Positions 13,830-61,639 of a stretch of 64,000 nucleotides of DNA are shown in pieces (the first letter of the stretch is position 1; every line of letters begins with the position of its first letter). A program made the position numbers and the translations under genes. This stretch comes from Eledone cirrhosa. Its lineage: Eukaryota. The notes beneath the pieces were generated by a model. The model made no database searches. It had not been told where the DNA came from and worked only from the letters and a program-made list of their open reading frames with translations. The stretch spans positions 107,074,001 to 107,138,000 of the forward strand of contig OZ024741.1 of assembly GCA_964016885.1 (NCBI GenBank), in the 5' to 3' direction.

Positions 13830-13874
13830 AATATTGCTGATGAGATGTTACAACATCGAAACTAGTCCAATATT
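13830..13874 (+). ncRNA. Minimal type I hammerhead ribozyme
   Basis: aatattg-CTGATGA-gatgtt ac aacatc-GAAAC-ta-GTC-caatatt: 7-bp stem I, perfect stem II, intact core, palindromic ACTAGT stem III. Confidence 0.88.
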
Positions 13875-14106
13875 CCTTGTCTGGCTTTCTGGAGAATAGA
13901 GGAAAGGTGTTTCCTCGAAAACCAGTATGACTCTAAAAACCGGTTTGTCTGTGTGTTTACATACAGAATAGCTGGACACTCACAGTAAAGTGTCCAGTGA
14001 AAAACTCGGTACATCTACATATGTACACGTGTGTGTATTCATATGCATACTAGTATTTCAGTATACATATGTGGATGTACATTTTTAACTTAATTATATA
14101 TATATA

Positions 14107-15129
14107 AATGGAATCCCCAAGAGGATAGTGGACCTGATATCACTGCTCTACACCAACACCAAAGCCCAAGTCATTATACCTGATGGGATGACAGAGTTCT
14201 TTGAGATACTGGCTGGAGTGCTCCAGGGAGATACATTGGCTCCCTACCTTTTTATCATCGTAGTGGAGTATTGTATGCGCCTTGCACTGGAGAAACACCA
14301 GGACTCTGGCTTTACTGTAGTACCGGCTCAGAGCAGGAGAGTTGGGGCGAAAAAGGTATCGCATGCTGAATTTGCCGACGACATAGTTTTGGTGACAAAT
14401 ACAGTGAAGGAGGCAGAGGATTTGATGCGGGAGGTTGAGACTGTGTCGATGAGTGTGGGGCTGAGAATGAATGAGACTAAAACAAAATATCTGGTAGAGA
14501 ATGTTGAGAAGCCAGAGGGGATCACTAATGTAGGCGGGAAGCCGCTGGAATTGGTTGAGGACTTCCTGTATTTGGGAGCAAAGATTGGGAATACGGAGGA
14601 TGATGTGGTTGAGAGGAAGAGCAAGGCCTGGGCGGCGTGTCACAGCTTGCGATCGGTGTGGAAGTCGGACCTTCGTAGAGACCTGAAAATCCGCCTCTTC
14701 ATTGCTGTAGTGGAGTCTGTGCTGCTGTATGGGTCTGAGACTTGGACACTGACCAAGAGACTCACTCAGATGGTGGATGGGTGCTACACGAGAATGCTGA
14801 GGATGGCTCTGAACATTAATCAGTATACACTGAGGATGAAAAACTCGGACCTGTATGGGAGCATCCCAAAAGTCAGCTCAAAAGTGACACAGAGGAGACT
14901 GAGGTTGGCTGGACATGCTCACCGACATCCAGAGTTGACATTGCACTCAGTGCTCCTTTGGGAGCCCCTACATGGACACACTAGAAGAGGAAGACCAAGG
15001 TTAACATATGTTGATGCCCTAAGGACAGACACTGGTCTGTTGGAGATGCAGGATATGGCAGCGATAATGAGGGACAGAGACCGCTGGAGAGAACTCGTCC
15101 ATGGATCTCGGGAATTTTACCCGCCTTAG
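14107..15129 (+). mobile_element. 5'-truncated RTE-clade LINE, open RT/C-terminal ORF
   Basis: GVLQGDTLAPYLF, EFADDIVL, FLYLGA, SVLLYGSETWTL, GRPRLTY…DRDRWR; (TA)n on both sides. Confidence 0.92.
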
Positions 15130-15656
15130 ATATATATATATATATATATATATATATATATATATATGTACAGACGAGAAAACTATATATTCTCCACTGT
15201 TTTCAAGTCATGCAGTCGCAGGTCTGGGAGGGATCGTCCTGGTTAGGACCAGTTAAGTCCGAAATGCATCGATGATTGTCCACTTACTTCTGCTGGACAC
15301 CCCCAGAGGGCGTTAGCCCCGGTGTTTTTTGCATAGCTACGGCTTTCTAAATGTTTACCTGTCAGCATTCCGTGTTTGCTGAGAAATACGAAATCTCTCT
15401 CTCTCTCTCTCTCTCTCTCTCTCTCTCTATATATATATATATATATATATATATATATATATATATATATATATATATATATATATATATATATATATAT
15501 ATCGTAGTAATAGGTAAATAAAAATTCATGGTGTAGAGCAAACCAAGTCTGCACAGTTCTCTTTTATCGGCACGGGTTGATGAACGAAACGTACATACCT
15601 GGTAGGGTGCCGTTGTAGTAACTGACTTGAAAAGTTATATATATATATATATATAT

Positions 15657-15820
15657 AGTAATAATAATAAATTTGAAGATTAAAATCCCAAAAGGGCTCG
15701 ATAAGGATAAATATATATCAAATATATAAGAACCGTAGAGCAAATATTTATTAAAATAACAGACTAAAGTTTAAGCAAAGAATCGCTGCTTTTACCTTTA
15801 ACGGGATCTTCTGAAACTCA
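15657..15820. repeat. Dispersed repeat modules (also at 10484, 20730, 21150, 21767, 54359, 55118, 58243)
   Basis: gtaataataataaatttgaagattaaaatcc…gctcgataaggataaat joined to attaaaataacagactaaagtttaagcaaagaatcgctgc. Confidence 0.8.
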
Positions 15821-16095
15821 ATATGTATATATATATAACTTAATATATATATATATATATACATATATATATATATATATATATATATATATATATATAT
15901 ATATATATATATATATATATATATATATATATATATATATATATATATTTATTCAGGTTTGAGGTTCACCACTGTATAGAGCTGGTCTATTCCGTATGGT
16001 CAATCGTAATGCAATAATATAGAGAGTACTCAACGTAAAGCAGTTCAACCGTCTTTGTTTTTGTAGTTGGTGGTGCTATTACGGAGTTAAATATT

Positions 16096-59264: not shown

Positions 59265-60007
59265 CCACTACCACCACCACCACCACCACCACCACCACCA
59301 CAACCACCACCACCACCACCATTACCACCACCACCACCACCACCATTACCACCACTAACAACAATTAACACCAAAACTACAAACATCACCACTTTCACAA
59401 GGGCCACCATCCCACCAGCTTTAACTACCACCACAATCACTACTATGGCCTCCACCACCACTATCAGCAGAACAACCACCATTACCACTACCACATCTAC
59501 ATCACCGAACAACCATCATTACAGCCATTACCACCTTCACAATAACAACCACCATCACTACCACCATCATTACCCCCATCACCACCAGCATCAACTATCA
59601 TCATTAACAGCCCCACCATTATCACGAAAACAACCACCACCATTACCACCACCACTAGTATCACCACCACCAGCATCACCACCACAACACCAACAGCAAC
59701 AAACACCACCACCAGTTCCACCAACAAACACCACCACCACCAGTTCCACCAAAATAACCACTACCATTACCATTACCACCACCACTAGTATCACCACCAA
59801 CCACTAGTATAACCACCACCACCACCACTACCACCATCACCACCACCATCACCACCACCACCATCACAAGTACCACCAAAACAACCACTACCATTACCAC
59901 CACCACTAGTATCACCACCAACATCACAACCACCACCACCACCACCACCACCACAACCACCACCACCACCACCACCACCACCACCACCACCACCACATGT
60001 ACCACCA
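59265..60007. repeat. (CAC/ACC)n-rich degenerate trinucleotide repeat
   Basis: Direct inspection. Confidence 0.9.
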
Positions 60008-60819
60008 AGTCAGGTGATATTGGTCACTGTAATAGTAAGGACATTGAATACGGAACGATGCCAGCATATCCATTTGGATTTTAATTAAGAAAATATAAAC
60101 AACAATAGCAACAACAGTATATAGTAATTACAACGTATACAGTATATTACAAAGTATATAATTACTCATTTACTGTTCACTTTCATGGCATTTGTACATT
60201 ATTCTATGTACGATTCATGCACCTTTGATGAGTTGTAGAGTCCCTGAGTACTGTACACAATAATTTCATTATACATTATATAATGATAAAACCATATACA
60301 TTTGTTATCATGTTAGTTATTGTTAATGGTGTAATTATTATTGTATTATTAAAATGACTAGCAGAAAAACCACCATTCGGGTGGTTTTCTGCTAGTATGT
60401 GTAGTGTGTATATTGATATTATACGCAAGTATATATACATGTAGATATGATACATCAAATATATAATACATAGAAATTGAGCAAAGACTGTGTTGCACTG
60501 TCTTACGTAATCAGTAACGTAATCCATGATACATTAAAAAAAGACGATATTATATATAAACTGCATTAGGAGAAAATTAGTGACAGAAAATTAGTATGTT
60601 TATTTAAGCGATCGCCAACCGGAAGTGTTGACATTTCAGAAATTTTAAACAAGTGAATCTTTAAATAAACAAAATATATTTAATCAATAGCCACGAAATT
60701 TAGTAGATAAATTATGTAATATTCATTCATTATTTATTCAAAGTAATCCAACTTATTTTACTAATGGGATAAAACATTATAAACCGTACGCAGTCCCGCG
60801 CTCCTCCCTTTATTACAGT

Positions 60820-61003
60820 TTAGATAGTTTCGGTAGAGCGTCAGACACCATGCTTGGCAGCATAGAGTTAAGGCTCTTTACGTTCTGGTTGAAATCCTGC
60901 CGAAGTTAACTTTGGCTTTCATCCTTAAGGGATCGATAAAATAAAGCACAAGTAATGCACTGGGGTAATTGCTGGCCTTGTGCTAAAAGTAGAAACAATT
61001 ATT
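60820..61003 (+). mobile_element. tRNA-derived SINE, family 1 (diverged)
   Basis: Matches family 1 through the acaattatt tail. Confidence 0.85.
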
Positions 61004-61588
61004 AAAATGATAAATAGTAAATATGTATATACATATATATATGTATATATATATATATATATATATATATATATATATATATATATATATATATATATAT
61101 ATATATCACCCCCCCCCCCACTCACAAAAGCGTGAAGCTAATAAACTCATATTTGTACTGCCTCTCTGTTTTTGTTCCCATCTAAGATTTAATTACATAT
61201 ATATATATATTATTCCATATATCATTATGTCATTACTTGCATTATATCAATGAATATTTAAAGTTAAATATATCTTTACATATTGTTTAACGTTATATAT
61301 ACTAAATCATGACACATATCACTGTTACCTTGTAACTAACGTAATAACTACTATAGGATTATATACATTTTATATTTTTCCGATAATATATCATTAAATA
61401 TATATATATATATATATATATATATATATATATATATATATATATATATATATATATATATATATACACTTATATATATATATATATATATATATATATA
61501 TATAAGTTTATCCCGGGTTCAATCGGGAGGGGGGGGTAAGTACAGTAAGTAAGGTACTCAATATATAACAGAGTATAAATATAGAAAT

Positions 61589-61639
61589 GGCTTCTACAGG
61601 ACTAGAATTGTTTCATTCGGGAGAGATCACCAGGAAGCC
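61589..61639 (-). ncRNA. Mutated type I HHR (CTGGTGA core)
   Basis: ggcttc CTGGTGA tctctcccgaat GAAAC a…t GTA gaagcc. Confidence 0.55.

Follow-up and report, generated by a model that had tools for sequence, protein, structure and literature searches.

A 64,000-nucleotide (nt) stretch of the Eledone cirrhosa genome (assembly GCA_964016885.1, contig OZ024741.1, positions 107,074,001 to 107,138,000; here called the window) contains many hammerhead ribozyme (HHR) motifs, most of them in short repeats that lack open reading frames (ORFs) and start or end in (TA)n. What are these repeats, and from which RNA were they copied? An initial annotation, made from the sequence alone, ascribed them to one diverse, ribozyme-processed retroelement system that targets (TA)n and is related to Penelope-like elements (PLEs). 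Our results make it likely that the motifs belong to the HHR-bearing termini of several PLE families and to ORF-less units, both inserted at (TA)n, and that the commonest short copies (stubs) are cDNAs of the capped 5' leader of uncut RNA, primed internally.

We found that the HHR motifs are real. The window is 34% GC and 28% microsatellite, in an assembly of 3.0 Gb. Our main descriptor consisted, in order, of stem I, CUGANGA, stem II, GAAA, stem III or a palindrome, UH and stem I', and tolerated a mismatch or bulge at the stem II base. It found 7 type I HHR motifs in the window (Table 1), compared to 0.0 in 100 block shuffles and none in the reversed sequence. A stricter descriptor found 3 (13837, 51373 and 57003), compared to 0.01 in shuffles. 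A loose descriptor added, among others, 16625+/16200-, 33259- and 34860+, and was discarded as support because its 27 matches were accompanied by 9.3 in shuffled sequence. An Rfam search of the window gave no match at the gathering score, and no hammerhead was among the top 150 of 613 matches in the E-value list, which was swamped by microRNA models that match microsatellites. When 10 window motifs were folded by minimum free energy, the z-scores were weak (-2.0 to +0.5) and the hammerhead was often not the fold obtained; this folding was therefore left out as support.

Not every site that had been listed as complete or near-complete is so. Seven look intact. In contrast, 23821+ has lost GAAA (the sequence is CAAA), the copy at 61589 has an A-to-G change in the core, and an inversion cuts the 5' strand of stem I at 36110+. 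Of the lesser sites, 28230 corresponds to the 3' half of an HHR with a long stem II, 35119 is a degenerate copy with the U3-A8 core variant, 35754/31177 and 50312 belong in degenerate form to repeat families that have further copies, and 31350 is a half motif at best. A further abundant repeat has a one-off core, CAGAAGA, and a three-helix fold (at 10546-, 55122+ and 20742+); it is probably another HHR family that the first reading overlooked.

HHR motifs were also abundant outside the window. We sampled 79 ten-kb stretches at spaced round coordinates (789,800 nt in total) and found 67 motifs with a CUGANGA core and 6 with a UUGANAA core, compared to 0.4 and 0.9 in shuffles (73 versus ~1.3 together). 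At least one motif was present in 33/79 stretches. The families are as diverse as had been claimed: the 80 descriptor matches (7 in the window, 73 in the samples) fell into 21 clusters by flanking sequence. A U.U mismatch at the base of stem II was seen in four unrelated families (D, F, the L094 family and the L149 family). The density was 92 motifs per Mb (bootstrap 56-142), or 69 per Mb (47-94) excluding two stretches with tandem arrays. This extrapolates to approximately 200,000 dispersed motifs genome-wide (140,000-280,000).

This density is well above the published counts that we found, a comparison that is only rough because descriptors differ. Those counts are 2,000-9,000 in schistosome, coelacanth and frog (PMC4209133), more than 6,000 in a coral, and 126,247 in the axolotl, whose genome is approximately 10 times larger (PMC7229834; bioRxiv 10.64898/2026.07.22.740005). 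A recent repeat annotation of Octopus vulgaris makes no mention of ribozymes. The literature searched held no paper on cephalopod hammerheads; it excluded the supplements of PMC4209133 and PMC8557442, which may include molluscs or cephalopods.

The initial annotation supposed that such elements could account for much of the unannotated DNA between microsatellites, which is more than we found. HHR-family DNA makes up 5.2% of the non-microsatellite bases in the 79 samples (plus 2.8% with homology to PLE ORFs) and 15.7% in the window, these coverage figures being lower bounds. The window is richer in HHR families than the genome average. Tandem HHR arrays were met by chance in two samples, L149 (1-10000, 420-bp units) and L161 (8600-10000, 311-bp units), and retrozyme satellites may be a sizeable fraction of the genome.

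Covariation, which the initial annotation had proposed as a check, was found in stem I of family D. We gathered 56 copies of this family by the flank outside the HHR. Stem I variants among them were GGCUUC/GAAGCC (8 copies), AGCUUC/GAAGCU (8), AGAUUC/GAAUCU (5) and GCCUUC/GAAGGC (1). In an alignment of 41/56 copies, from which those with stem I visibly cut by the junction were left out, 93.8% of cells pair and 3 stem I pairs are changed on both sides. Stems II and III barely vary and have no two-sided changes. The covariation represents a few subfamily events, not 22 independent ones. It indicates that the stems of family D appear to be under selection and that the ribozyme would matter there.

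We found parent elements for four of the families. On sequence evidence, families E, F, I and M are the 3' ends of PLEs: they lie downstream of reverse transcriptase (RT)/GIY-YIG frames, on the same strand. There were 10,597 GIY-YIG candidates genome-wide, of which 150 were scored, and some lie in open frames of 600-1,100 amino acids (aa). L091 is a full-length element, with a 938-aa RT + GIY-YIG frame (P0001) between two family M pseudo-long terminal repeats (pLTRs), each of which ends in an HHR with a UUGAAAA core (positions 7456 and 2477). In P0001 the GIY-YIG match is over the cut-off and the RVT_1 match (E 2e-6) just below it. The family M frame carries a CX2-5CxxC linker and GxKF and DKG motifs (Neptune/Nematis type), and a second family of this type has an HHR 380 nt past the stop codon. 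Families I and E lie 1.1-1.4 kb 3' of frames with Hydra-clade motifs, on the same strand, and family F lies 200-300 nt after an endonuclease (EN) frame in L104 and L106. The Hydra-clade motifs (a CxCX5C linker; CxxC and CxH beside E and N; no CCHH) are present in L234, L235, L240 and the second frame of L237, and are altered in L233 and the first frame of L237; a Pfam search gave no match for L233 or L237. DKT is present in L239, and RWK was not seen in these frames, which are partial at the N-terminus. The Hydra-type frame is 22% identical to P0001 over RT + EN and has 2,535 homologues. By these motifs, families I, E and F are of the Hydra type and family M is of the Neptune/Nematis type. A young subfamily of family I (L108, L213, L216, L218, L233 and L236) has a C3.A8 core; older copies have U3-A8.

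The proposed link to PLEs stands for E, F, I and M, and was not found for A, B, C, D, G and H. Families A, B, C and D have no ORF. Family A (18 genome candidates) has a low copy number and is the monomer of a tandem array with a 466-bp period, at least 28 kb long, on contig C1; the HHR is present in 19/22 and 19/21 array units in two 10-kb stretches. Family B is partly tandem. Family C has two HHRs 668 bp apart in L277, and an intact HHR in 15/19 other copies examined. Family D is a 500-bp unit between (TA)n tracts, with no tandem copies seen. We suggest that all four are retrozyme-like ORF-less units; A fits a non-LTR retrozyme, and B, C and D are candidates. An apparent EN C-terminus upstream of family D was rejected, as long D copies start at (TA)n approximately 500 bp from the 3' end and are ORF-less. 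A D copy near a Hydra-type frame was rejected as a parent link because it is a separate insertion. The motifs therefore do not form a single system: the ends of autonomous PLEs from two clades occur side by side with retrozyme-like units that lack ORFs.

The association with (TA)n held. Among copies that extend to the 3' end, this end is beside (TA)4 in 20/20 of family I, 12/16 of D, 9/11 of C, 4/4 of M and 4/8 of B, compared to a background of 2.5%. A short interspersed element (SINE) used as a control was not TA-associated (3/87 and 9/102 at its two ends). Among window elements delimited by hand, 19/21 have an end within 10 nt of (TA)4, compared to 7.6% of random intervals; these boundaries were set by eye, so the family test with the SINE control is the cleaner one. 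The preference agrees with the (TA)n bias published for elements of the Hydra and Neptune types. The 3' ends of each family fall at two fixed places, ~+65/+126 in D, +105/+182 in I and +111/+171 in M (all positions within elements are counted from core C3). Of 30 D stubs, 17 end near +50 to +65 and 13 near +126. Two such ends are expected from the two internal RT starts of an anole PLE, PAc (PMC11167929).

We found that 5' ends avoid the ribozyme cleavage site. We examined 5' hot spots in three families, D, I and M. The ends cluster at -10 to +6 (D), +40 to +55 (I) and -43 to -28 (M), upstream of the predicted cleavage sites (+38, +85 and +29, respectively). BLAST starts can shift with subfamily divergence, and the junctions were therefore re-read directly. 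The hot spot is a purine at -6 in D (the first base of stem I), +45 in I (inside loop II) and -42 in M. The sequences there are TCAGCT or CCAGAT (D), TTAGTC or TCAGTC (I) and CCAGAT (M), all three close to the initiator consensus TCAKTY. The Penelope element of D. virilis is described as having a TATA-less internal promoter with an initiator.

Many of these junctions have an extra G. In 181 copies of the D AGATTC subfamily joined to (TA)n at -6, the preceding base was G (79 copies), T (50), C (34) or A (18); the C is templated, as long copies have C there. In the D AGCTTC subfamily the preceding base was G in 5/16. It was G in 15/100 family I copies at +45 (first 100 of 664 matches) and 19/100 family M copies at -42 (first 100 of 383). 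In contrast, G preceded an internal control purine in 0/21 D copies and 1/100 family I copies (first 100 of 252). Fisher tests gave p = 2e-5 for D, 3e-4 for I and 2e-5 for M. Counts were made by hand from listings of exact matches, among which are a few duplicates that lie next to each other. The extra G is absent from element and target sequence alike. A fixed start purine with an extra non-templated G argues that the stubs are likely cDNAs of a capped leader.

The same junctions bear on three other explanations. It is unlikely that RT simply stalls at the folded hammerhead, so that copies break off nearby and snap back without any special RNA end. In the three families examined the hot spots do lie no more than ~45 nt from the core, and in family I the stop follows the 3' strand of the long stem II. 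However, the place of the hot spot in the fold differs by family (-6, +45 and -42), and the extra G is present at the hot spots and not at the internal controls.

Slightly less credible still is the idea, implied by the term "ribozyme-processed", that HHR self-cleavage, with or without circularization, yields the RNA that is copied. The selected stems of family D speak for it, and families A, B and C are tandem or permuted and ORF-less, like published retrozymes, so that circular RNA is plausible there. However, cDNAs extend 40-70 nt beyond the cleavage site, and D junctions at that site number 12, fewer than at an arbitrary internal site (21) and far fewer than at the hot spot (181). A religated circle would let RT pass the cleavage site, but leaves the fixed start and the extra G unexplained. 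In addition, the C3.A8 core, which is predicted to cleave poorly, is present in 9 of the 11 long family I copies listed (a further copy, L235, has U3-A8), yet family I is abundant. This fits the finding that in vitro insertion of the anole element needs no HHR cleavage (PMC11167929). Because 5' junctions avoid the cleavage site, "ribozyme-processed" is unsupported.

Least probable of the three, an extra G inherited from a few master stubs with G between (TA)n and element, re-amplified by read-through transcription, would suit the spread of short ORF-less units (such as the fixed 500-bp form of D) and the neighbouring duplicates among the junction matches, but the same G is seen in three families with no relation to one another and in two subfamilies of D; the base before it can be T, A, G or C, and the stubs that carry it have either 3' length.

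Many insertions are head-to-head palindromes, and the short inverted arm uses the inner 3' site (D +65, I +105, M +111). In 23/34 D pairs and 18/27 I pairs, the starts of the two arms are no more than 10 nt apart. Arm identity is higher within than between insertions (0.957 versus 0.883 in I; 0.900 versus 0.849 in D). Private changes are common to both arms in L007 and L099. Such changes fit two primers on one RNA, snap-back, and later gene conversion alike. The window also contains long palindromes without a recognised HHR (33949-34195, 48704-49066, 49742-50145, 57960-58039 and 63152-63231), which may be further PLE stubs or miniature inverted-repeat transposable elements.

We suggest the following for the origin of the stubs as copies of capped, uncut leader RNA. 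A promoter in the pLTR would start capped RNA at or in the HHR, the start purine being the transcription start and the G a copy of the cap. The element's endonuclease would nick (TA)n and RT would start at two internal sites, as in the biochemistry of the anole PLE. Priming 70-210 nt downstream of the transcription start, copying to the cap and adding a base opposite it would leave a dead stub with little beyond the hammerhead. Longer, randomly truncated copies would arise if these sites were primed in their 3' copy. If both target strands were primed, or the cDNA snapped back at the cap end, head-to-head palindromes would result. It is likely that these PLE proteins also mobilise the ORF-less units in trans.

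Several observations weigh against this proposal. Compared with the D control alone, the extra G of family I gives p = 0.07, and the G is in a minority of I and M copies. The family I control is also weaker than 1/100 suggests, since approximately two-thirds of its rows are junctions a few bases upstream. The 5' ends of families B and C are scattered. The start positions of paired arms show no correlation in D (rho 0.00) and a weak one in I (rho 0.37, p = 0.06), and a D arm is the best match of its own partner in only 5/18 pairs. No autonomous partner was found for families A, B, C, D, G and H. The view of an extra G as a copied cap comes from LINE-1 work, for which searching gave no source. 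The accessible part of PMC11702581 has nothing on cap-derived G, and the literature searched, excluding supplements, has no paper on an extra G at PLE 5' ends or on the start-site idea.

A more far-reaching idea is possible, though we would not count on it: PLE promoters may start at or in the hammerhead, the ribozyme may be a switch of the 5' leader, and the internally priming RT may have placed hundreds of thousands of capped-leader copies in (TA)n. If so, cleavage in family D, 45 nt from the start, would remove the cap, and the family I leader would hold half a ribozyme, so that only the 3' copy could cut. The genome would then be among the densest known stores of ribozyme motifs and would map where PLE transcription begins.

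PLEs and retrozymes that carry HHRs and target TA have been published before, and the elements here appear from their sequences to belong to three known groups. With Hydra-clade EN+ PLEs (Craig et al. 2021, PMC8557442), families I, E and F share a C-terminal GIY-YIG without CCHH, the CxCX5C linker, CxxC + CxH, DKT (in L239), the HHR and (TA)n insertion. In the accessible text of that paper, the clade is known from few families outside cnidarians and its elements are generally <3 kb. The elements here differ in their thousands of copies (2,895 and 1,416 candidates), 3' untranslated regions >1 kb, no RWK seen in the N-terminally partial frames, and the C3.A8 core of the young I subfamily. Neptune/Nematis EN+ PLEs (Cervera and De la Pena 2014, PMC4209133), as far as that paper's accessible text goes, share RT + GIY-YIG between pLTRs, a type I HHR with palindromic helix III, the U3-A8 variant, mostly single truncated copies, and several families per genome. 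The differences are the motif number (2,000-9,000 per genome there, ~200,000 extrapolated here with a different descriptor) and a U.U or other mismatch at 10.1-11.1, instead of G-C, in several families here.

Non-LTR retrozymes (Cervera and De la Pena 2020, PMC7229834; Li et al., bioRxiv 10.64898/2026.07.22.740005) consist of tandem units, each a few hundred bp long, that lack ORFs and carry a type I HHR, like family A (466 bp) and the arrays in L149 and L161. The accessible portions of these papers report a U.U mismatch in axolotl HHR_Amex2 and propose a PLE origin of retrozymes. In contrast to retrozymes, the motifs here are mostly dispersed PLE stubs, not tandem units, and their density is far above that in the axolotl. 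The anole Poseidon element PAc (Frangieh et al. 2024, PMC11167929) shares an AT-rich target with both strands nicked and extended, two internal RT starts that match genomic ends, and an uncleaved RNA template. The fixed 5' end, the extra G and the inverted-arm joint are not treated in the accessible text of that paper.

The added interest here is the motif density and the extra-G evidence, by which the stubs would mark, at the hammerhead, where capped RNA begins. In the literature available, what the hammerhead does in PLEs is described as an open question, and the genome record argues that cut RNA is not the main template. Exact candidate transcription starts make that role testable. The proposed copying of capped leaders would also account for many isolated ORF-less hammerheads and head-to-head palindromes in PLE-rich genomes.

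The elements of the window are listed in Table 1. No PLE protein homology was found in the window itself.

Table 1. HHR-bearing elements and related repeats of the window
Feature	Position	Strand	Remarks
Main-descriptor HHRs	13837, 22933	+	
Main-descriptor HHRs	22161, 22690, 32743, 51373, 56583	-	
CAGAAGA-core repeat	10483-10679, 15671-15818, 20735-20852, 21146-21351, 54373-54473		
Family A monomer, ORF-less	13586-14095	+	short inverted arm; intact type I HHR 13830-13874, helix III palindrome ACUAGU
Family G head-to-head palindrome	16088-16737	.	near-complete HHRs 16625+, 16200-
G-like palindrome, degenerate	17434-17825	.	cores 17695+, 17475-
Small repeat with telomere-like tract	21914-21968, 39285-39339, 56315-56350		
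Family B, ~530-bp permuted ORF-less unit	22034-23166	.	tandem and inverted
Family B HHRs	22161-, 22690-, 22933+		branched stem II
Family C, 668-bp permuted ORF-less unit	23445-24177	+	HHR at 23821 without GAAA
Family I stub with inverted arm	28087-28274	.	between (TA)n tracts; HHR 3' half; Hydra-type PLE end
Family H palindrome	31040-31273	.	degenerate HHR 31177-
Family C copy	32392-32955	-	HHR 32743, A.C at stem II base
Family D stub	33137-33265	-	HHR 33259, compensated stem I GCCUUC/GAAGGC
Family E stub	34822-34946	+	HHR 34860, U3.G8 core change
Family M	35030-35420	-	3' end, sister of the Neptune-type PLE in L091; diverged
Family M HHR	near 35127-35159	-	degenerate, UUGAAAA core
Family H relative	35690-35860	+	degenerate HHR 35754
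Family F stub	36080-36237	+	short inverted arm; Hydra-type PLE end
Family D fragments	39045-39214	.	without HHR 5' core
Family I stub	46887-46991	+	3' part only
Family J	50302-50394	+	degenerate HHR 50312; between (TA)n tracts
Family E stub	51183-51457	-	intact HHR 51373; Hydra-type PLE end
Family D stub	56462-56588	-	(TA)n on both sides; starts at HHR 5' edge
Family D HHR	56583	-	U.U at stem II base
Family E stub	56925-57189	+	HHR 57003
Family D stub	61504-61640	-	HHR core mutated, A6 to G

Other features of the window include an open frame at 44935-45252 + that resembles an exon, with an eh1-like FSVENIL motif, and ends at a GT donor. We presume from this motif that it is possibly the first exon of a homeobox-type gene; it has no Pfam match, and no WFxN homeodomain motif was found in the window or within 10 kb on either side. 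Two degraded copies of an L1/Tx1-like long interspersed element (LINE) lie at 3059-9258 + (RT match E 5e-27) and are 82% alike over 1.3 kb. The 3' part of an RTE-like LINE (14089-15129 +), with a 346-aa frame (RVT_1 over the cut-off), ends in (AT)19 and sits directly 3' of the family A insertion. The control SINE, which is abundant and of the tRNA type, is present at 23237-23422 and approximately 12 other places in the window, with 166 matches in the window and samples. A telomere-like tract, (TAACCC)4.5, lies at 21890-21916 in the small repeat beside family B.

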